From an uncultured Magnetococcales bacterium (lineage in GTDB: Bacteria > Pseudomonadota > Alphaproteobacteria > UBA2136 > JAPKEQ01), in assembly GCA_964015495.1 (NCBI GenBank), contig CAXHDG010000012.1:943-64942 (forward strand): a DNA stretch of 64,000 nucleotides, given 5' to 3'. Shown here piece after piece: positions 3,663-13,639 of the stretch (positions are counted from its first letter, which is position 1; each line of letters starts with the position of its first letter). Below the pieces are notes generated by a model that worked only from the letters and a program-made list of their open reading frames with translations, made no database searches and had not been told where the DNA came from. Both the position numbers and the translations under genes were made by a program.

Positions 3663-3784
3663 TCTTAAAAAACTCTCTTTTTTAACTTAAATCCATTTCA
3701 AGGAGTCATGAAACTTGACGTTCACTCAAGCACGCGTTTATTATGCACGAAGGTACAGACATTTTAAGAAAAAAGGTAAAATTC

Positions 3785-4318
3785 ATGTCCCCTTCTACAC
3801 GCGCATTTATGGTTTTAGTCCTTATTGCTGATTTTTTTGCCATTATTTATTTTGGCGGACACTTTGTTATTACGGGTGCCGTCCTTCCACATAACGCTCA
3901 TGCAGAAGAAAACATGATTGCCAAAGCCGAAGATCCTGGCAGCAGTGCAGGCCACGGTATAAAGGTTGCTGAAGTCGCTCCTTTTGATATTCATACATTT
4001 GAAGCTGACGCCGCCAAAGGCGCTAAAGTTTCTGGTAAGTGTAAAGCTTGTCACAGCTTTAACAGCGGCGGTAAAAACTCAATTGGCCCAAACTTATGGG
4101 GCATTTTCAATTCACCTATTATGAATAACAGTGAATTTTCTTACAGTGCGGCCTTCCAAGGTAAAAAAGGAGAGCTTGTTTGGGATAAAGACGCCCTTAA
4201 TGACTACCTTAAAAATCCTAAGAAATATATTAAGGGTACAAAAATGGCCTTTCCTGGTATCAGAAAAGATGCCGATCGTGCCCATCTCATTGCATGGCTT
4301 GAGACACTGTCAGAATAA
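3785..4318 (+). CDS. Membrane-anchored class I cytochrome c (CycM/c2-like)
   Basis: N-terminal TM, CKACH heme motif, GPNLWG, GTKMAFPG axial Met. Start set at MSPST. Confidence 0.92.
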   Translation: MSPSTRAFMVLVLIADFFAIIYFGGHFVITGAVLPHNAHAEENMIAKAEDPGSSAGHGIKVAEVAPFDIHTFEADAAKGAKVSGKCKACHSFNSGGKNSIGPNLWGIFNSPIMNNSEFSYSAAFQGKKGELVWDKDALNDYLKNPKKYIKGTKMAFPGIRKDADRAHLIAWLETLSE

Positions 4319-4504: not shown

Positions 4505-5074
4505 ATGTTGAGTTTAAAAAAATTTAAAAATCAAAAAGGTGCCATGTTTGGTCTAGATGCTCGTGTCGCCCTTGCAATTTTTGGTGGTCTTTCTGTTATT
4601 GCTGGTGCTGCAGTATTCAGTAGTATTAGTGAAACACGTGTAACGTCACTTATCACAGAGTTTGATAACGTTTCAAAAGGTTACATCAACTACGTATTTG
4701 ATACAGGTGTTGATACACTTACTTTTGACGACATGCTCGCTGACCCAGGTAACCCTGTTGTTGGTTGGTCTGGCCCATACCTAACAGTAGCCAGTGATAA
4801 CCAAACAACATACGGCACTTACAGCTATGACGAAGGCCCAGATTCTGCTGGTGCAGACCCTACAAGTAACGCTTGCGCCACAATCTGTTATGTATGGCTA
4901 GAGCTTACTGGCGTTCCAACATCAATTGCCATTAGCGTTGATAACGCTATTGATGGAGATGATACACCTATAACAGGTACACCAACAGCAGGTAATTTCC
5001 GATTCGTAGATACTGCCGGAACATCTGTAACACGCTTTAAACTATCTCGTTGCCAAACTGCAACCTGCGTATAA
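4505..5074 (+). CDS. Putative major type IV pilin/pseudopilin with atypical class III signal
   Basis: Basic leader KKFKNQKG, then AMFGLDARVAL and a hydrophobic helix, YVFDTG, four Cys. GGAGA RBS, own terminator, first gene before the ATPase. Confidence 0.8.
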   Translation: MLSLKKFKNQKGAMFGLDARVALAIFGGLSVIAGAAVFSSISETRVTSLITEFDNVSKGYINYVFDTGVDTLTFDDMLADPGNPVVGWSGPYLTVASDNQTTYGTYSYDEGPDSAGADPTSNACATICYVWLELTGVPTSIAISVDNAIDGDDTPITGTPTAGNFRFVDTAGTSVTRFKLSRCQTATCV

Positions 5075-5115
5075 TTTAAGCCTACCTCTTAAATTTGTGC
5101 TTATTTAGCAACGGC

Positions 5116-5150
5116 GAAAACGGCCTCGTAACATATGCGAGGCCGTTTTC
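5116..5150 (+). terminator. Terminator hairpin after the pilin gene
   Basis: GAAAACGGCCTCG...CGAGGCCGTTTTC perfect inverted repeat. Confidence 0.75.
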
Positions 5151-5233
5151 ATGTCTAATACACAGAGAAAGGTTGAGTTCTGCCCCTCTTCTTTGCCATA
5201 ATAGAATATAAGAAAAAGAAAGCGATGTAATAG

Positions 5234-6931
5234 ATGGACATTGTCGATCTCATGATCAGTGATCAGGTGATCAACATAGCAGACCTACAAGGTCTGCCTG
5301 TTACTGTGCAAAAAGATCCAGAACAACTTATTGATGCCCTTGGTAAGGCCGGTAAGCTTTCTGAGATGCAACAGTCTCGTTACAAGGCTATCGCTTATGA
5401 TTACCCTGTCAGAACAGATGAAGAGATGTCCAGAACCACACCTCACCAAGTGGACGGGGTCAACGCTGACTTTATGAACTTTTATACCGCCTGCCCTATT
5501 GAACTTGGGCGCGGTGCGATCACTTGGGCTTCCGCAGACTTGCCTAACAAACGCCTCCTAAGCGAAATTGTGCTCAGGCACCGTAAAAACAGGCATCAGT
5601 TTGTATGGGCTTCTGCAAAATCTATTGAATCTGCCATCGAGCGCATGTCTAAGCGTGAAGGGCATTCCCTTAAGTTTCTTGTGGAAACAGCTTACGCACA
5701 AATTAACGCAGGTAATGACGATGCAATTGTCCACCTAACTGATGAAATCATCAGAACAGCTTACAAAAACAATGCATCAGATCTACACATTGAAATTTTG
5801 AACCGTAAGCCTACGGTTATGGCACGTATTGATGGTGAACTTGAAGAACTTGTACCGCTTCCTATTGAAGTTTACGAGCGGGTTGTTGGTCGCTTACGTC
5901 ACATGGCCGGCGTGCGTGCTGAAAACTATAAAAAACCGCTCTACGGACGTATGACATTTGAACTTTCTGCCCGTCAACACATTGATATTCGTTATACAAC
6001 GCAGCCCATTACCCTTGAGAGCACAGCAAAAATTGCAATGCGTTTCCTAAAACCATTTGAAGGTAGTATTGATAACTTCGGTTGGCGTAAAGATAGCATT
6101 GACAGGCTTGATGTTCTTATGCGTTTTGAGGAAGGCTGTATTATTTTTGCAGGACCTACGGGTTCTGGTAAATCAACAGGCGCACGTATGATTATCCGCC
6201 GCGGCCAGCGCCCGGGTCAAAACGTAATTTCATACGAAAAGCAAATTGAGGAACGTATGGATAACGTAATCCAGACGGAAGAAGACCTGAGCGCAGGCCT
6301 AAACCTTGAATCGTTCATGTATGCTGCCCTTGGTCTTGACCCTGATGTTCTCTTTATTGGTGAGGTACGTAGCCCAGAAGATACGCGCCGATGCATTGAT
6401 GCGGGTAACCTTGGTCACCTTGTTATTACAACCATGCACGCCAACGACACATTTATGACCCTTGACCGTCTTGTGCAGCGCGGTGTGCCTGTGGAGCAAA
6501 TTTTTTCTAATGTTCGCGGCATTATCGCCCAAAGGCTCGTTAAAAGGCTCTGCAACAAATGTAAAGTTCCACTTGAACTTGATGCTGAATTTACGGAACA
6601 GCTGAATAGTTTACGCCCCCTTGATTTTAAAGAGGGTGACGTTATTTATAAAGCCAATGTTAATGGTTGTGAACATTGTCGCCATAGAGGATATATTGGC
6701 CGTATTGCTATTGAAGAAATTTTAGAGTTATGGCGTAAAGATATTACCCGCAATATTTGGACAAGCACAGCGCTTAGACCTGATTGGATTGATATTATCC
6801 GTAAGCAAGCTGTAGAAATTGGAATGCCCGATATGCTGACGCAGGGTATTTCTCAAGTAAAAACTGGGGTAACATCCCTTGAAGAACTAGAAAGATTTTT
6901 CAGTGCAGATTTGGAAACAATTCAGTCGTGA
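5234..6931 (+). CDS. PilB/GspE-family extension ATPase (divergent)
   Basis: ASDLHIE, RIDGEL, Walker A GPTGSGKST, DPDVLFIGEVR, His box GHLVITTMHAND, AQRLVKRLCNKC...CEHC Zn motif, GYIGRIAIEEIL. Confidence 0.93.
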   Translation: MDIVDLMISDQVINIADLQGLPVTVQKDPEQLIDALGKAGKLSEMQQSRYKAIAYDYPVRTDEEMSRTTPHQVDGVNADFMNFYTACPIELGRGAITWASADLPNKRLLSEIVLRHRKNRHQFVWASAKSIESAIERMSKREGHSLKFLVETAYAQINAGNDDAIVHLTDEIIRTAYKNNASDLHIEILNRKPTVMARIDGELEELVPLPIEVYERVVGRLRHMAGVRAENYKKPLYGRMTFELSARQHIDIRYTTQPITLESTAKIAMRFLKPFEGSIDNFGWRKDSIDRLDVLMRFEEGCIIFAGPTGSGKSTGARMIIRRGQRPGQNVISYEKQIEERMDNVIQTEEDLSAGLNLESFMYAALGLDPDVLFIGEVRSPEDTRRCIDAGNLGHLVITTMHANDTFMTLDRLVQRGVPVEQIFSNVRGIIAQRLVKRLCNKCKVPLELDAEFTEQLNSLRPLDFKEGDVIYKANVNGCEHCRHRGYIGRIAIEEILELWRKDITRNIWTSTALRPDWIDIIRKQAVEIGMPDMLTQGISQVKTGVTSLEELERFFSADLETIQS

Positions 6932-7997
6932 TGCTTTAGGCCCTCGGGTCACGGAAATGCGCGCACGCGATCGTGAACGCATGTTTTTCCTTATGTATCA
7001 GATGCTTAAATGTGGTCAAACCACAGAGTCAGCTGTGCGTGCCGTTGCGAAATCTTTCAGATCAGAAGGCAAGGAAGATATCTCTGCTGCACTTCATGCT
7101 ATTGCTCAAAAAGTTGCCCAAGGAAAGCCTATGAGTAAATCCATGGAAATGGAATATGTTATGTTTGACGATGTTCACCGCGCCGCTGTTATGGCAGGGG
7201 AAGCCTCAAACTACATGACAGAATCTTTTCATATTTTACAGGTTTTAGAGGATAAAAAAATTGCAGCTTCGCGCGCAGGACTGGCTGAACTCCTCACACC
7301 GATGCTTATGCTTTGCTTCAGTTTATTTTCTATTTTTAATACAGGCCTTAACACACTGCCTGTCCTTACACAGCTAAAAACTGCCCAAGGAAAAAGCCTT
7401 GGCGTAGCACCACGCATGGTTATGGATATGACGGGGTGGTGCGCAGAGCACTGGCATATTCTTCTCGCAATTGCTATTACACTTGGTATATCAGCTTACG
7501 CGGGCATTAAGTCAACTCAAGGGCGTTTTTGGTTAGATTACTACACCCTCCGCGTCCCTCTTATGGGTAAGTTTATCCGCTATAAAACCTATGCAAACAT
7601 GCTGCTTTATTTTCCGCACCTTGTAGAAAGTGGTGTAAAGCCAAAACAAATGATTCCAATCATGGAAGCCATGTCGACTAACATTGTTTTGCGTCGTAAA
7701 ATTGATGCTTTTAACCAAGTTATTACAACTGGTGGTAAAATGTCTGACGCTATGGAAAAAGCAGGGTTCCCAGGTTTGATTGTGACGCCTATTCGTGTAT
7801 CAGAAAACTATGCTGGTAGCGATACTGGTACCAACGATGTTATGATTGAAGGTATGAATCACGCTTATTCTATCTTAGAACGAGACTTAACCGATACGCA
7901 CAAGCGTTTCATTGGCACATTTTCGGTTATTTTATGGCTAATGGGTGGTGGCGTTATGCTACTTGAGATGATGTCAATTGTACTTGCACAGTCGTAG
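6903..7997 (+). CDS. PilC/GspF-family inner-membrane platform protein
   Basis: Two GspF-like repeats (KVAQGKPMSKSM...AGEAS; GGKMSDAMEKAGFP), three TMs, LRVPLMGKF; follows the ATPase. Confidence 0.85.
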   Translation: MQIWKQFSRDALGPRVTEMRARDRERMFFLMYQMLKCGQTTESAVRAVAKSFRSEGKEDISAALHAIAQKVAQGKPMSKSMEMEYVMFDDVHRAAVMAGEASNYMTESFHILQVLEDKKIAASRAGLAELLTPMLMLCFSLFSIFNTGLNTLPVLTQLKTAQGKSLGVAPRMVMDMTGWCAEHWHILLAIAITLGISAYAGIKSTQGRFWLDYYTLRVPLMGKFIRYKTYANMLLYFPHLVESGVKPKQMIPIMEAMSTNIVLRRKIDAFNQVITTGGKMSDAMEKAGFPGLIVTPIRVSENYAGSDTGTNDVMIEGMNHAYSILERDLTDTHKRFIGTFSVILWLMGGGVMLLEMMSIVLAQS

Positions 7998-8009: not shown

Positions 8010-9170
8010 ATGCCTATGATTAAAAACCTTCTCGGACAACAGTTTAAAAACATTTGTTTTACTGGCTTGAACCGTGTGGAATACTTACCTGATGGGTCTG
8101 ACCAGCCTATTTTTGGTGATAGTTGGCAAGACGTATCTGATGATCAAGCGCGCCGTACAATGTGCCTCGCATTTTTTGCACCAAGAGATCTTTCAGGTGA
8201 ACCTGTTGATCCCGCATCAATTCTTATTGAGAATTACTCTGATGAGGATGTTCCTGATGCTATAGCAGCAGAAAGCATTAAACATATTCCTCTTATGGAT
8301 TATTGCCGTATGCCACCAGCTGACTCAAACACCGTAAACTTTATTGTTGTGGCAGATGTCATTTTCCATTGGGATATTAAAGACAACTACTTGCAGCCTA
8401 CATCCCAGCTTACATGGGTACAAGATATTAAGGCCATTTTAAAATCTTACCCAAGGAGTTACACTAAAAACGTTTATACTAACTGGCAAAAAGATAAGCT
8501 TGAAGAGCTTCGCGTTAATGTTCTTCCGCTGAGAGAATCTCCTGTTTTTAGCGAAGTTTGGCTTAACATGCCATCCTTTCAAGAAAAACACGGTAATATT
8601 ATGCTAACCTTAGGTATCTTGGTATCTCTTGTAGCCTTTGCAATCACCTACATGCAAGATATGAAAATCCAAGAACTGCAAGATCAAAAAAGATCTGTCG
8701 TTAGCTCTATGCCATCAGGGCAAAACTTTTCTGTCCTCTCAAATCTGATCCGTACGCAACAGCAAAACATGTCCTATAGAGAGTATTTCCCATTCATACT
8801 AAAAGATATTTCATACGCCATCCAATATTCAGGTATGAAAATTGATTCATTTGAATTAGAGGTCCCCAACCCTCAGGAAACACCTAAAAACCTCCTGCTG
8901 ACAATTAATGCCAATAGCGATGCTTATGATGGATGGCTTGAGGAAGAACCTGTGGCCAAATCATTCCTTGCACTTAGCAGTACTGTTCAAGCTGTAAGAC
9001 GTCAACCAGGAAGCAAGAAAATGAAACTTGAAGGTATTATTCCCCTCAGGTCTGCCATAAAAGAGATTCACCCTTACTTGCAGGAAGCAAGAAAGACAAG
9101 AGCCATTGGTAACCGTACTCTTGGTAATACCTCCGAGGAAAAAAACAAAGAGACTGGAGATGACTCATGA
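8010..9170 (+). CDS. Bitopic alignment-complex-like protein (PilM/PilN- or GspL-like)
   Basis: About 195 aa cytoplasmic part, one TM, coiled coil, then a periplasmic domain; position in the operon. No direct motif. Confidence 0.5.
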   Translation: MPMIKNLLGQQFKNICFTGLNRVEYLPDGSDQPIFGDSWQDVSDDQARRTMCLAFFAPRDLSGEPVDPASILIENYSDEDVPDAIAAESIKHIPLMDYCRMPPADSNTVNFIVVADVIFHWDIKDNYLQPTSQLTWVQDIKAILKSYPRSYTKNVYTNWQKDKLEELRVNVLPLRESPVFSEVWLNMPSFQEKHGNIMLTLGILVSLVAFAITYMQDMKIQELQDQKRSVVSSMPSGQNFSVLSNLIRTQQQNMSYREYFPFILKDISYAIQYSGMKIDSFELEVPNPQETPKNLLLTINANSDAYDGWLEEEPVAKSFLALSSTVQAVRRQPGSKKMKLEGIIPLRSAIKEIHPYLQEARKTRAIGNRTLGNTSEEKNKETGDDS

Positions 9171-9664
9171 TTCAGTTTACAATAGGCCTTGCACTTTTTG
9201 CTTTTGCCGCAATTCTTGGCACTTTTAAATCGTTTGAAAACGTGGATAAAATTCATGTAACCCAAAATAGCTTGCAAAGCTCTATGAGGGATAGAGATCG
9301 CATCCTAAAAATCCAAACTGATATTCAAAAAGCAGTACGTGAAACACTTGAAGCAGGACAGGATCAGAAAAACAATATTGAACGATTGTTTAACCTCGCC
9401 GAAAGAGATTTATCATTTAGCTTCATTGGTCAACCGGTTCAAAACCCTGCTGCACCGGGAATTTTTTATCACACCTACAGAATTACTGGCATTGAAACCT
9501 ATTCTAAAATTTCAGAACTGTTAACCCTTATCGCTTCAACTCCAGGGTTTTCTGTGTACAAAACATGCTTTAATTGCTCAAGAGTAAACCGTGAGCTCAA
9601 GCCTGGCCACCATATGATTACAATAGAAGGGCACCTATATGTTCATGACCCACGCCAGATTTAA
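9167..9664 (+). CDS. PilO/GspM-like bitopic protein
   Basis: N-terminal TM, coiled coil, 'YRITGIETYSKISELLTLI' resembles the PilO/GspM core; ATGA overlap with the previous gene. Confidence 0.55.
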   Translation: MIQFTIGLALFAFAAILGTFKSFENVDKIHVTQNSLQSSMRDRDRILKIQTDIQKAVRETLEAGQDQKNNIERLFNLAERDLSFSFIGQPVQNPAAPGIFYHTYRITGIETYSKISELLTLIASTPGFSVYKTCFNCSRVNRELKPGHHMITIEGHLYVHDPRQI

Positions 9665-10784
9665 ACTTGCCCTAACAGCTTTTGCTATTACTGTTGTGAC
9701 GCCAAGCCATGGCCAAACTATTTCTTGGCCAGATACATTTACAGGCCAGCCAGATTTTGAGTTTACGCGCACAGATATTGTAAAAGAAATTCAAGAAAAA
9801 AGACCTGAATCATTCTCAATATTAACAGGAAACCTTGATCGATCTCTAAGTACACAAGGGGTTAACCCCTTCTCCCCTAAAACATCTCAAAACCTTATTG
9901 AGATATATAGTAGATATAACGAGAACGAATCTATTGCTATTGAGCGTAAGAAAAATCCGGTTCCGCAAGCATACGTAGGCTCTAGGCATCAAATTTTCCT
10001 TAGAACAGGTGAAACCTCTGGCGCTAATATTATTTTAAAGGATGGAGAGGTCTTTGCTATGCTGTCTAGCGGCAAAATTCTCCCTATTGAGCTCGCACCC
10101 AACAATACCATTGTGGAATACGTTGCTACAACACAGATTTCAAAAGAAGAAATTATTGACCAAAAATTCCAAGATCTTTTTGCTGGAAAACGCCTGTTTT
10201 CTGATACATCTGTAAACCTAGAAGAAGTTGATAGCAGACTTGCAGGTCTACAAACATATCAAGCAGATGGGCAATTGCCTGATTTTTACACAGATTCTCA
10301 AGGACGCCTTGCTCCCACAGAGTTCAAGCGCTTTTTAGAGAGGCTTTTACGCCAAACGCTACAAAAAGAGCAAAAAAATCTTGGCTTACAAGATTTCTCT
10401 CAAGATATTAAAAAGATCAAAATTGACAGTATTGTAACCTCACCATTTAAGTATGCTGTACTAGACGGTGAAAAATACAGCGAAAAGGAACGCTTTTTCC
10501 TTTCTGTTCAAAGGCCTCAAGGGCAAAACACTAACTTTAGAGCCATTGTAGAGCAATACATACCCCCTAAAGATTCTATGGATGCGGGCATGCACCAATC
10601 TTTCTTAAATGAAGCCAATGGTGTTATTGAGCAATACGAAAGAGAGCTTGGCATAGAAGCAGGCACTGCGACTCGTATGGCAACCCATAAGATAGGGGTA
10701 ACAGTAAAAGAAATTGGCCACAGAAAAGTTATTTTAACAATTGGTGACAGGGATTACCCGCTTAAAATTAACTTGGCTTTATAA
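9639..10784 (+). CDS. Exported protein with PilP/GspB/MshK-like C-terminal beta domain
   Basis: Signal peptide; IKIDSIVTSPFKYAVLDG...VTVKEIGHRKVILTIG pattern, split by an insertion. Confidence 0.45.
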   Translation: MFMTHARFKLALTAFAITVVTPSHGQTISWPDTFTGQPDFEFTRTDIVKEIQEKRPESFSILTGNLDRSLSTQGVNPFSPKTSQNLIEIYSRYNENESIAIERKKNPVPQAYVGSRHQIFLRTGETSGANIILKDGEVFAMLSSGKILPIELAPNNTIVEYVATTQISKEEIIDQKFQDLFAGKRLFSDTSVNLEEVDSRLAGLQTYQADGQLPDFYTDSQGRLAPTEFKRFLERLLRQTLQKEQKNLGLQDFSQDIKKIKIDSIVTSPFKYAVLDGEKYSEKERFFLSVQRPQGQNTNFRAIVEQYIPPKDSMDAGMHQSFLNEANGVIEQYERELGIEAGTATRMATHKIGVTVKEIGHRKVILTIGDRDYPLKINLAL

Positions 10785-10787
10785 GAG

Positions 10788-11546
10788 ATGATGAAAGCAA
10801 AGCACAAAAATAAAATGAAAATATTATGTCAAAAGGGTGGCTTTTCGCCATTCATGTTTGGCGTTCTTGCTGCGCTCTCTATTTTTAGTACCATGCTTGC
10901 TCAATGGGCAAAAGAAGATCTAAAACAGCTACAAAGTGAAAAATTAAAACGCCAACAAGCACACTCTGAAGATATTAAAGAAGCCATTGAAATAGCCATC
11001 CTTTCAGAGAACAGTAATGTTGCTGGAAATAATTACAGCCAAACTTATGATGTTGGCCGCGCACAAGGGTTTCTTTCATCCTCAAACAACACGACACGCG
11101 GTGGAGCTGCCATTCAAATACAAGAAGTTGATAGTAGTCAGGTTCAAGATATTCAAAACAAACGTATTGCGATTAGCTCATCAGATGACACATTTCTGCG
11201 TACTGACGTTGCAGGGCTTGCAACCGAAGATGCTATAGCTGCTTATGACAGCGGCCTTGATGGCGCTCTGGCAACAGTAGATACAGAAGCTTTACGTAAC
11301 CAGCAAGTAAAGCACTCAAGAAAGCTCTTAGAAAAAGAGGCCAGCTTGCTTTATACATTTTTTACAGAAAACAGCAGATTTCCCGCCAATCAAGGCGAGT
11401 ACGATACTGATATAAACGCCTTAACAAATTACAAAGATACTTGGGGAAATGACTTTACCTACACCTATGCAAGCGATACCGAAGCAACATTAGGTTTTAC
11501 CACCCCATGGGGGAAAAGCTTTAACGTTCGTGTGGATATGAACTAA
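10788..11546 (+). CDS. Minor pilin/pseudopilin lacking E5
   Basis: QKGG|FSPFMFGVLAALSIF class III signal; C-terminal RFP...KDTWGNDFTY GspG-like motif. Confidence 0.7.
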   Translation: MMKAKHKNKMKILCQKGGFSPFMFGVLAALSIFSTMLAQWAKEDLKQLQSEKLKRQQAHSEDIKEAIEIAILSENSNVAGNNYSQTYDVGRAQGFLSSSNNTTRGGAAIQIQEVDSSQVQDIQNKRIAISSSDDTFLRTDVAGLATEDAIAAYDSGLDGALATVDTEALRNQQVKHSRKLLEKEASLLYTFFTENSRFPANQGEYDTDINALTNYKDTWGNDFTYTYASDTEATLGFTTPWGKSFNVRVDMN

Positions 11547-11566: not shown

Positions 11567-12475
11567 ATGATACGTGCCATTGCAAAACGCTTAAAAAGCC
11601 AAACAGGTGCTGTTTTTGGTATGGATGCCCGTGTGGCACTTATTATTGCAAGTATTATGGCTGCAACAGGTGGTGTAACCGTACTTTCTCGTGTTGAACG
11701 TAATAAAAACGATGCTGCTGAACGTGGTGTTGATTTACTTGTGAATGCCAACCTGAAGTACTACATCACAACAGGTATTAACACCATATCCCCTGATATT
11801 GCGACCCTATTTACATCTGGTGTTATGGAAGAATCATACCTCCAACAAGATCCATGGGGCAACAACTGGAACTATGTGATTGGCTCGACAAATATTGAAA
11901 TTGAAGATGTGCCTGTCACCATGTGGTACGGTACTATTCATACAAGCGGTAAAGATGGCACAGATGACTCTGTAGCTATTGCATCTTACGCGAACTGGCA
12001 AGTATGGGAAGCCGCTGGTGATGATATTGGTATTAAATTTTCAACCACATCTATTGAAAAAGATCGGGTAGAGCTTTACAGAAAGCAAGGCCAAGAAATT
12101 TCTGACCGTCTCGCAGCTGTAGAAGCTGCATGGTATCTTGATGCAGATGGCGCTTGCACTGGCCCTGCGTGGTGTACAAGTGGTGGTAAATCTTACACAA
12201 ACTTTAGTTACTACCCAATCTCTAGCCTTGATGCCAATGTCAACATACAATATTTTGATGCTGTTTGTACCGACACCGATATTGCAGGGACAACCAGCGC
12301 CTGTAATGATGTGACATACATAAGCGGGAACCAAGGCTCAATGGAAGCGCTATTAAACTTGCTTAACCTGCCCATTAGCTATGCAACAGACCCTTGGAAT
12401 CGCACTTTAAGGTATAACTCAAACCTAACTGACCGCGAAGATCCACCATTTAGCGCTCAGGTTTGGTATCAATAA
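11567..12475 (+). CDS. Minor pilin, paralogue of the 4505 pilin
   Basis: KSQTGAVFGMDARVALII signal; QDPWGNNWNY, SGKDG and TDPWNRTLRY GspG-like motifs; four Cys. Confidence 0.75.
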   Translation: MIRAIAKRLKSQTGAVFGMDARVALIIASIMAATGGVTVLSRVERNKNDAAERGVDLLVNANLKYYITTGINTISPDIATLFTSGVMEESYLQQDPWGNNWNYVIGSTNIEIEDVPVTMWYGTIHTSGKDGTDDSVAIASYANWQVWEAAGDDIGIKFSTTSIEKDRVELYRKQGQEISDRLAAVEAAWYLDADGACTGPAWCTSGGKSYTNFSYYPISSLDANVNIQYFDAVCTDTDIAGTTSACNDVTYISGNQGSMEALLNLLNLPISYATDPWNRTLRYNSNLTDREDPPFSAQVWYQ

Positions 12476-12478
12476 ACA

Positions 12479-13090
12479 GTGTTTGCATTTGAAAGACAGT
12501 TTCTCACAGAGGATGATATTTCTGAGGGGTTAATCCCAGAAAAGTTCCATATTATCCTTACAGGACTGTTTTTTATTATCTTTGGCGCATTGAGCCTTGC
12601 AAGCATAGCAACAGCAATAGAGTGCCTTTTTTGGGGGATATCAAGCCTGGTTTTAGCAAGACTTATTGCCCTAGACCTTACAAACCATACACTCCCCAAC
12701 ATTTATATTGCTCCTCTATGTTGCTTTGCACTTATTGGCAGCCTTACAGGCATGCTCCCAATTATATGGCAAGATGCTCTCTTTGGAGGCGCTATCGCAT
12801 TTTCAAGTGTTCTTGCTCTTAGTTTTCTTATTGAGCTTTTATTAAAATCTGCCTTTCTTGGCGGAGGGGATATAAAATTCATCGGCGCATCAGGCCTTTG
12901 GCTCGGTTGGGGGCTTTTACCTTTTTACATGATGGTTGCCTGCTTTTTCACAATTATCATTTCTTTCCTGCCCAGTAAAAACAATCACATCGCCTTTGGC
13001 CCAGGGCTTTGCTTCTCTTTATGGCTGTTTTTGCATCAAAAAACTTACTTGATGGTCTTGATAAACAAGGCATTTGCCTTTATATCTTGA
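12479..13090 (+). CDS. Prepilin peptidase A24 without N-terminal methyltransferase domain
   Basis: Catalytic ALDLTNHTLPN and LGGGDIKF, C-terminal IAFGPGL; no CxxC Zn motifs; 203 aa. Confidence 0.88.
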   Translation: MFAFERQFLTEDDISEGLIPEKFHIILTGLFFIIFGALSLASIATAIECLFWGISSLVLARLIALDLTNHTLPNIYIAPLCCFALIGSLTGMLPIIWQDALFGGAIAFSSVLALSFLIELLLKSAFLGGGDIKFIGASGLWLGWGLLPFYMMVACFFTIIISFLPSKNNHIAFGPGLCFSLWLFLHQKTYLMVLINKAFAFIS

Positions 13091-13093
13091 AGT

Positions 13094-13639
13094 ATGACCG
13101 AAATATGTGCCCATCCAGATTGCGAGCTTGAAGGAACTTTTCCTGCCCCTAGAGACCCTAGCAACATATCTGCGCGTCAGTATTTCTGCGAAAAGCACAT
13201 CAAGGAATTCAATAAAAATTGGAATGGTCTCAAAGGCTTTAGCAGCGATGACCTCTACACCTTACAGTCCGGTGCCACCTGGGGACGCCCAACGTGGAAA
13301 ATGGGTGTAAACACAGAATCCTACAAAAAGGCAACCCTTGCAGCCGATAAGAGTTACAAAAACCCATACACCCTATTTGGTGATATGGATGAAGACCAAG
13401 CAACCACGACATTCACACCTAAAATGCCAAAAAGAATTACTGAAGCCTGCGAAACATTAGGCATAGAGCCACCACTCACGCCTCACATTATCAAAAAGCG
13501 CTTCACAGTTCTTGCTAAGAAGTTTCACCCCGATATTTACACAGGGGATGATGCTGCCGAACGTATGGGTATTATTAATGATGCCTATACAACACTTAAA
13601 GACTACCTTAAACGCCAAGAAGTAGAAACTAAAGGCTAG
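13094..13639 (+). CDS. J-domain protein with N-terminal Cys/His Zn-finger-like region
   Basis: CAHPDC...FPAP...FCEKH..EFNKNWN, WGRPTW, C-terminal LAKKFHPD...INDAY. Confidence 0.85.
   Translation: MTEICAHPDCELEGTFPAPRDPSNISARQYFCEKHIKEFNKNWNGLKGFSSDDLYTLQSGATWGRPTWKMGVNTESYKKATLAADKSYKNPYTLFGDMDEDQATTTFTPKMPKRITEACETLGIEPPLTPHIIKKRFTVLAKKFHPDIYTGDDAAERMGIINDAYTTLKDYLKRQEVETKG

Follow-up and report, generated by a model that had tools for sequence, protein, structure and literature searches.

Few prokaryotic machines are as widespread as type IV filaments, whose subunits are usually found by one N-terminal signature. Type IVb pilins, such as CofA and longus of enterotoxigenic Escherichia coli (ETEC), TcpA of Vibrio cholerae and PilS of Salmonella, have long leaders and a hydrophobic residue other than Phe at +1, and they come with one large minor pilin, a lipoprotein secretin and no PilT. 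The GspG, EpsG and PulG pseudopilins found in type II secretion systems (T2SS) carry G|FTLxE, where the bar marks the cut. In the available parts of the reviews PMC4371748 and PMC3244431, the residue at -1 may be Gly, Ala or Ser and the residue at +5 may be Glu or Asp; the available part of PMC4471445 has the bacterial leader end invariably in Gly, a critical residue. These partial texts also describe archaeal class III signals that accept Ala at -1 and in which nearby charge matters, as in RA|VS (PMC4371748), an archaeal peptidase that performs no N-methylation (PMC4471445), and the Flp pilins of Tad systems, which have about 60 amino acids (aa) and carry G|xxxxEY (PMC3244431). Finally, the available portion of Denise et al. 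reports 884 "generic" type IV filament systems (PMC6668835). Here we analysed a 64,000-nt stretch of DNA, referred to as the window (C12:943-64942 in the contig labels of the assembly), from a genome of 1.77 Mb in 35 contigs that is 95% complete. Two of its genes, called gene 1 and gene 2, encode pilin-like proteins that share an unusual N-terminus:

4505..5074, plus strand: gene 1, major pilin-like subunit of 189 aa (open reading frame, AlphaFold2 model, VIA matches, 96 relatives)
4538..4564, plus strand: codons of the gene 1 processing motif, G12-A-M-F-G-L-D-A-R20 (translation and pattern match)
11567..12475, plus strand: gene 2, large pilin-like subunit of 302 aa with a C-terminal extension (AlphaFold2, EpsG match, hhalign)
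11606..11632, plus strand: codons of the gene 2 motif, G14-A-V-F-G-M-D-A-R22 (translation and pattern match)

Genes 1 and 2 code, with a probability of about 0.6, for components of a divergent type IV filament: the 189-aa major pilin (gene 1) and a large minor pilin of 302 aa (gene 2). [quoted passage not shown] The N-terminus appears to be a variant class III signal, in which the leader is short and basic, ends in [KR]-[GA]-Ala and is followed by [M/L/V/A]-Phe-[G/S]-[L/M]-Asp-[A/T]-Arg. Compared to GspG-type pseudopilins, [GA]-A-M-F-G-L-D-A-R stands in place of G|FTLxE, with Asp for Glu and an invariant Arg in the hydrophobic helix. The likeness to type IVb pilins includes a non-Phe hydrophobic residue at the inferred +1 position, but the leader here is short (median 7 residues), with Ala at the inferred -1 position, Asp for Glu and Arg two residues later. 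Ala at the inferred -1 recalls the archaeal PibD/FlaK substrates, although the machine here is bacterial, with GspE/GspF-type parts and a secretin. Further likenesses to the archaeal signals are the charge close to the site and a peptidase that would not N-methylate. The proteins differ from Flp pilins in their size (175-300 aa), their full globular head and the Ala, not Tyr, that follows the acidic residue. We regard this as a real and large pilin family, for the most part without annotation, that has a signal and a peptidase of its own. The kind of machine is not new, and it would belong with the "generic" systems, as far as these are described in the available portion of PMC6668835.

The shared motif and its family

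The translation of gene 1 opens MLSLKKFKNQKGAMFGLDARVALAIFGG and has the N-terminus ...NQKGAMFGLDARVALAIFGG; that of gene 2 opens MIRAIAKRLKSQTGAVFGMDARVALIIAS and has the motif region ...KSQTGAVFGMDARVALIIAS.... A degenerate DNA pattern for G-A-[MV]-F-G-[LM]-D-A-R matched the window only at 4538-4563 and 11606-11631, compared to a mean of 0.00 and a maximum of 0 matches in 100 dinucleotide-preserving shuffles of the window. The nonapeptide common to the two genes is far beyond chance. An earlier reading of this DNA (the original prediction) had reported the motif in these two genes, which was confirmed, and the genome has three more such genes. A profile search gave a total of five pilin-family matches in the genome, only two of which fit the exact [GA]AMFGLDAR pattern, and contig C3 carries three tandem genes with GAMFGLDTR, GAMFGLDAR and GAAFGLDAR. 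The start of gene 1 at 4505 has GGAG 9-12 bases upstream, and relatives begin with the same Met. A start at the Met of GAMFG, where two database entries begin, was discarded, since paralogues have Val, Ala or Leu at that site and the K/R-G-A upstream of it is conserved in the proteins.

Of 243 candidates from a word-seeded search, 96 were relatives of gene 1 at E<=0.001. When 1.84 billion cluster representatives were searched exhaustively with a profile, 1719 matched at E<=1e-3, of which 786 reached E<=1e-10 and 612 reached E<=1e-30, the last being a count of 50%-identity clusters. Among 232 family proteins, 200 had G-A-M-F-G-L-D-A-R, 29 had A-A-M-F-G-L-D-A-R, two had been called from an internal Met and one was without the motif. 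The presence of [GA]-A-M-F-G-L-D-A-R in 229/232 bears out the claim that the signal differs from G|F(T/S)LxE. In the 200, the motif was followed by Ile (167), Val (32) or Leu (1), the residue before the first small residue was Lys in 72% and Arg in 21%, and the leader had a median length of 7 residues. The helix after the motif (I/V-A-L-A-I-F-G-A/G-L-S-V-I-S/A-G-A-A-L) was 90-100% conserved at most positions, with the whole proteins only about 30% identical in a 41-sequence alignment, A1. Invariant positions were G12, A13, F15, G16, L17, D18 and R20 in A1, and Q12, A15, F17, D20 and R22 in A3, an alignment of 14 sequences of the gene 2 family. Paralogues and orthologues widened the motif to [GA]-A-[MLVA]-F-[GS]-[LM]-D-[AT]-R. 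The DNA copies vary freely at synonymous sites and the peptide motif is kept in 229/232, so the selection is on the peptide.

Neither PF07963 nor TIGR02532 matched the gene 1 or gene 2 product at E<=1, and neither matched any of the 41 family members at this threshold. As a control, TIGR02532 (cut-off 16.3 bits) scored 29.1 bits on the GFTLPE pilin and 20.0 bits on the GFTLPD pilin of the source genome. No archaeal pilin Pfam family matched at E<=1. We also re-implemented the published PilFind rule. The core expression, [GAS]-x4-[DE], fits 229/232, as AMFGLD in 220, and the training criterion of 14 uncharged residues after the motif is passed by 0/232 because of the Arg in the motif. The expectation that standard pilin finders would miss the family thus held for PF07963 and TIGR02532 but not for the PilFind core expression, which fits in the Ala|Met frame. 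The related expectation, that the family is hidden among hypothetical proteins, was largely right: where relatives carry a source name it is mostly "hypothetical protein", but JGI names 8 of the 96 PulG or PilE. The signature is shifted here (the cut site has Ala or Gly-Ala, Asp takes the place of Glu, an invariant Arg is added and there is no methyltransferase) and standard hidden Markov models are blind to the family, so at least 612 50%-identity clusters stay "hypothetical". In uncultured lineages, the annotation of pili and secretion would gain from recognizing the family, also in genomes that give several percent of their coding capacity to these genes.

The original prediction also called the signal non-canonical by comparison with a consensus that has a near-invariant Glu at +5. 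For the Asp and the small residue at the cut this was overstated, since the published rules, as given in the available parts of PMC4371748 and PMC3244431, permit Gly, Ala or Ser at -1 and either acid at +5. The real oddity is the invariant Arg two residues past the Asp, more than the Asp itself. Whichever cut is used, an invariant Arg in the core helix is without counterpart in the canonical signals of the reviews PMC4371748, PMC3244431 and PMC4471445, in their available parts. Searches of the literature with the motif strings gave no relevant paper (one unrelated Mycoplasma paper contains 'GAMFGL'), and keyword searches gave reviews and no account of this signal; subscription journals and supplements were outside the scope of both. 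In a subfamily of 12 of the 200 GAMFGLDAR proteins, a leader of about 40 residues opens with an imperfect version of the motif (KKGAMFGL[DE]xR..KKQFGELFL..), and the true motif and helix follow.

Fold and probable cleavage site

The AlphaFold2 model of the gene 1 protein, built from A1, had a mean predicted local distance difference test score (pLDDT) of 89.2 and a predicted template modelling score of 0.79, and it consists of a single helix (residues 14-67) packed against a beta-sheet head. In VIA, a search that does not depend on Foldseek, ranks 1-9 were pilins or pseudopilins throughout, with Z from 8.8 to 4.2. The top match was PilA1 of C. difficile (Z 8.8, root-mean-square deviation (rmsd) 2.6, 108 residues), and further matches included an ETEC type IVb pilin (Z 8.1), PulG (6.7), TcpA (6.5), EpsG (6.4) and PilS (5.8). 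The gene 2 model, built from A3, had a pLDDT of 77.4. Its residues ~15-160 matched EpsG (Z 8.6, rmsd 1.9, 85 residues, 27% identity), PulG followed at Z 7.9, and ranks 1-17 were exclusively pilins or pseudopilins; the model also has a second long helix and the C-terminal extension. These models and matches bear out the claim that both genes encode proteins of the pilin fold. Among solved structures, GspG-type pseudopilins and type IVb pilins come nearest. The ~20 hydrophobic residues after the motif would form the N-terminal half of the long pilin helix.

Homology was also seen at the level of profiles. Aligned with hhalign, the gene 2 family matched the canonical G|FTLPE pilin of the source genome with a probability of 97.4% (E 1.1e-11). 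Both families share the lollipop fold of GspG, EpsG and PulG, and DPWGN-type and GW-GPY motifs, also a likeness to those pseudopilins, are present in A1 and A3. The GspG models themselves scored below their cut-offs on gene 2 (PF08334, 14.7 bits against 21; TIGR01710, 14.2 bits against 88.85), and neither matched gene 1. In the ESM Atlas, gene 1 adjoins unnamed clusters, with clusters bearing N_methyl just behind.

Some results speak against a pilin assignment. Foldseek gave no match in the PDB at E<=0.001; the best was 2.4e-2, and the top rows were pilins at E 0.02-0.3. A profile search of the sequences of solved structures was insignificant, with chance helical matches in the top rows and the best pilin, a fimbrial protein, at E 0.69. 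In addition, Z of 8-9 is a range that VIA itself grades as middling. The assignment is therefore drawn from fold, homology and gene context combined and not from the VIA scores by themselves.

The leader is more likely cut between Ala and Met (Val in gene 2) than between Gly and Ala, with evidence for each. In the alignment of A1 with the genome's own GspG, residue 37 pairs with mature residue 24, and in that of A3 with the canonical G|FTLPE pilin, residue 49 pairs with mature residue 34. In VIA, model residues 39 of gene 1 and 41 of gene 2 pair with EpsG residue 26. These four register counts put Met14 or Val16 at +1 and the Asp at the position of Glu5. An alignment of the family with another odd pilin of the genome (NAGYTIDQ..) reached 32% probability and was not used for the register. 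Furthermore, the modelled gene 1 helix begins at Met14, and A-x4-D conforms to the published [GAS]-x4-[DE] expression in 229/232. The two residues before the hydrophobic part are [GA]-A in 229/232, which agrees with a short leader that ends in a small residue.

The same proteins and peptidase with a cut after Gly would give a mature Ala1, Asp6 and Arg8, with an N-terminus one residue longer than the canonical one. Several features favour this frame and count against a cut after Ala: a basic residue directly precedes the first small residue (Lys or Arg in 93% of the 200); this small residue is Gly in 200 proteins and Ala in 29, a pattern known for -1; Gly invariably ends bacterial leaders according to the available part of PMC4471445; and homologues of a 252-aa protein of the same cluster, described below, keep [KRS]-G and have Ala, Gly or Asn next, so that Asn would fall at -1 in the later frame. 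The register counts also presuppose that there is no insertion at the extreme N-terminus. However, a cut after Gly would move the acid from +5 to +6, outside the [GAS]-x4-[DE] rule, and the Ala after the Gly is 100% invariant in the pilins, as expected of -1, with the residue after it varying among Met, Leu, Val and Ala. Together with the four counts, this makes the cut after Gly a possible but less likely alternative.

Gene cluster and peptidase

Genes 1 and 2 bracket a type IV filament cluster with an ATPase, a platform and accessory proteins, and an A24 peptidase gene lies directly after gene 2. The other features of the cluster are as follows:

5116..5150, plus strand: perfect 13-15 bp hairpin just past the gene 1 stop codon (RNA fold)
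5234..6931, plus strand: assembly ATPase of the GspE/PilB type, 565 aa (PF00437, 229 bits)
6903..7997, plus strand: inner-membrane platform of the GspF/PilC type, 364 aa (PF00482 in two stretches)
8010..9170, plus strand: accessory protein, 386 aa, one central membrane segment (kept in all related clusters)
9167..9664, plus strand: bitopic accessory protein, 165 aa (kept in related clusters)
9639..10784, plus strand: protein of 381 aa whose N-terminal segment resembles a secretion signal (weakly conserved, with 24-28% identity, in related clusters)
10788..11546, plus strand: 252-aa protein with a second class III-like N-terminus, QKGGFSPFMFGVLAAL (translation)
12479..13090, plus strand: A24 prepilin peptidase, 203 aa, without the N-terminal methyltransferase/zinc domain (PF01478, 45.5 bits; cut-off 26.5)
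13094..13639, plus strand: J-domain protein after the peptidase, Cys-rich near the N-terminus and with the J domain at the C-terminus (PF00226, 40 bits)

In the peptidase, D66 and the G128-x-G130-D131-x-K133 motif are invariant in 10/10 aligned sequences, which include eight orthologues and the genome's other A24 enzyme, so the catalytic Asp pair is intact. The word-based search with this peptidase returned six close relatives only, and more distant ones were taken from related loci. The PF01478 match and the invariant Asp motifs agree with the original prediction of a dedicated peptidase at 12479. Bifunctional PilD/GspO enzymes have PF06750 fused to the A24 domain, but here only PF01478 is present; the sole PF06750 match of the genome is a stand-alone 138-aa open reading frame on contig C33. 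The absence of a methyltransferase domain is also a difference from the enzymes of GspG-type and type IVb systems. A parallel is found in Tad pili, where the available part of PMC3244431 describes TadV/CpaA as a truncated, dedicated A24 enzyme without a methyltransferase domain and with its own signal variant, although the ATPase and platform here are of the GspE/GspF type and not TadA/TadBC. The genome has a second A24 peptidase on contig C2, and at other loci it encodes canonical pseudopilins with GFTL[MI]E, in agreement with a separate peptidase for each type of signal. There is a good probability that the cluster peptidase processes the gene 1 and gene 2 products, and the family shows how a peptidase and its signal co-evolve.

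On contig C33, a 418-aa pilin (L015 185-1441, plus strand) has G|FTLPD, with Asp at +5 in an otherwise canonical signal; this is the pilin with 20.0 bits for TIGR02532. It is followed by the stand-alone PF06750 protein (L015 1435-1851, plus strand). The A24 domain protein on contig C2 is also a lone domain, of 240 aa (L013 1357-2079, minus strand). These two open reading frames look like a split PilD-type enzyme.

The assembly ATPase scored about equally with three NCBIfam models (PilB 247, GspE 236 and TfpB 233 bits), all far under the curated cut-offs. The platform scored best with the GspF model TIGR02120, at 93 bits, also under its cut-off. A GspE-like ATPase and a GspF-like platform as partners are a further likeness to the GspG-type pseudopilins. 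The 386-aa protein is possibly GspL- or PilM/N-like; it had no Pfam or NCBIfam match and a faint PilN lead only in the ESM Atlas. The 165-aa protein is possibly GspM/PilO-like, and it had a weak NCBIfam match, far under the cut-off, to the bindosome protein BasF (E 1.3e-4). The 381-aa protein and the 252-aa protein had no Pfam or NCBIfam family match. In nine clusters, the 252-aa homologues have Q[KRS]G[AGN][FV]SPF[ML][FYI]G in common, and the ..G-A-V-S-P-F.. of this family recalls the archaeal RAVSP. Its N-terminus makes the 252-aa protein a candidate minor subunit without an acidic residue. The position of gene 2 as one large extra pilin beside the peptidase is a likeness to type IVb systems.

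Cluster gene order recurs in L016-L019, L024, L045, L101-L103 and L107, with upstream cytochrome c and downstream J-domain genes. The J-domain gene lies downstream of the peptidase in eight related clusters (L016-L019, L024, L101-L103), and its product may be a conserved accessory of the filament system. A gene for a membrane-anchored cytochrome c (3743-4318, plus strand) lies directly upstream of gene 1, and the same adjacency is found in 23/78 related loci. It persists even where the ATPase was not found within the downstream flank of up to 10 kb of the pilin gene; in one such genome (G405), the ATPase orthologue is about 100 kb away on the same contig.

Strong hairpins are common 3' of major pilin genes. 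The one after gene 1 is probably a terminator or attenuator: the fold of 5100-5165 has -27.7 kcal/mol (z -6.3), and 0/200 shuffles were as stable. A consensus terminator scan did not list this hairpin, which was revealed by folding the region directly.

Distribution, probable secretin and proposed mode of assembly

Among GTDB species genomes, the family was found in metagenome-assembled genomes titled Alphaproteobacteria or Proteobacteria. Eight of 401 sampled genomes of the class had a pilin match at E<=1e-8. Seven of these, with genomes of 1.6-2.0 Mb, have 4-6 copies, and the eighth match was marginal and partial. An orthologue of the cluster ATPase (E<=1e-100, 66-79% identity) was present in exactly those 7/401, and the remaining 394 had none; the genomes are related to one another, which is why this count does not amount to a statistical test. 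Five further pilin-bearing genomes had the ATPase orthologue in four cases, and it was not found in one assembly of about 1.4 Mb. The tie between the pilins and the ATPase, platform and peptidase thus comes from linkage in related clusters and from the 7/7 co-occurrence with the ATPase. Members of the family come from marine Alphaproteobacteria with small genomes and from the MarineProteo1 group, the latter an outgroup in studies of mitochondrial origin.

Copy number is much higher in two assemblies. MarineProteo1_Bin2 (~1.0 Mb) has 74 exact coding matches to [GA]-A-M-F-G-L-D-A-R and UBA12223 (~1.3 Mb) has 65, compared to 0 in both with the reversed control pattern. These matches are frequently in tandem runs, spaced about 600 bases apart. 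If true, 65-74 copies per 1.0-1.3 Mb in deep-branching MarineProteo1-type genomes would suggest a large, interchangeable fibre-surface repertoire.

The cluster itself contains no secretin, a point against the filament reading. An orphan lipoprotein secretin of 595 aa was found on contig C8 (L095 7590-9377, minus strand). It is MshL-like, with 116.9 bits against a cut-off of 250, and an orthologue with 49-54% identity is present in 5/5 system-bearing genomes searched, in four of them about 10-45 kb from the cluster on the same contig. The C8 secretin is likely the outer-membrane channel of the system in the window. A lipoprotein secretin is again a likeness to type IVb systems.

In the mechanism that we propose for a type IV filament, the prepilin would be inserted into the inner membrane and its leader cut at the cytoplasmic face by the cluster's A24 aspartic peptidase. 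With a cut at Ala|Met/Val, the mature Met1 would be unmethylated, Asp5 would replace Glu5 and Arg7 would be specific to the family. The GspE-like ATPase and the GspF-like platform would then polymerise the subunits, giving a fibre or pseudopilus whose core holds the conserved helix, and the fibre would exit via the unlinked MshL-like lipoprotein secretin. The original prediction proposed that an Asp-Arg pair changes the salt-bridge geometry in the filament core, a reasonable but speculative idea. Residues two apart on a helix face different directions, so that Asp could pair with Arg only from one subunit to another. The family is a natural experiment on the purpose of Glu5 and the N-terminal charge pair. 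It is doubtful that these traits add up to a distinct class of bacterial type IV filament, in which an unmethylated N-terminus and inter-subunit Asp-x-Arg salt bridges would take the place of the contact between Glu5 and the N-terminal amine, only the co-evolved short peptidase would read the signal and 65-74 copies would supply a fibre-surface repertoire.

The proteins could also be pseudopilins of a T2SS-like machine, forming a short periplasmic piston for protein export and no surface pilus. The globular domains are nearest to GspG/EpsG/PulG, with weak matches to T2SSG in 10/41 and TIGR01710 in 16/41 family members, and the platform is best with GspF. No PilT-type retraction ATPase was found among the genome's five PF00437 matches, which are GspE, the two cluster ATPases and two VirB11-like proteins; a lack of PilT is also a trait of type IVb systems. 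The genome already has a canonical T2SS on contig C5, with GspD, E, F, G, minor pseudopilins and GFTLMEL and GFTLIEL signals. Pfam and NCBIfam gave no GspC or GspH-K matches among the cluster proteins, which also lack GspD, and the likely secretin is MshL-like and not GspD-like. A piston would not need the 65-74 motif copies of the relatives, and the gene 1 model is also near type IVb pilins. These points make a secretion piston unlikely. An ordinary Sec signal peptide or anchor, either uncut or cut by signal peptidase I past the hydrophobic stretch (e.g. after ..AGA) and with some other role for the motif, is most improbable. In its favour, the segment starts with basic residues, continues as a hydrophobic core and has small residues (..IAGAA..) usable as an AxA-like site. 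Against it, conservation is far higher in the first 30 residues than in the remainder, as is typical for the core helix of pilins but not for Sec signals; the modelled helix is continuous over residues 14-67 and pilin-like; and the genes are linked to those of a dedicated A24 peptidase, an ATPase and a platform and occur together with them.

A second cluster of this kind lies on contig C16 (L094 7388-18667). This paralogous type IV filament cluster keeps the gene order of the cluster in the window and adds an MshL-like lipoprotein secretin. The pilins encoded there start with ..QMNAGYTIDQTILII and ..NKGFTLPEMILVV; a cut after Ala would put Asp at +5 in the first of them, too.

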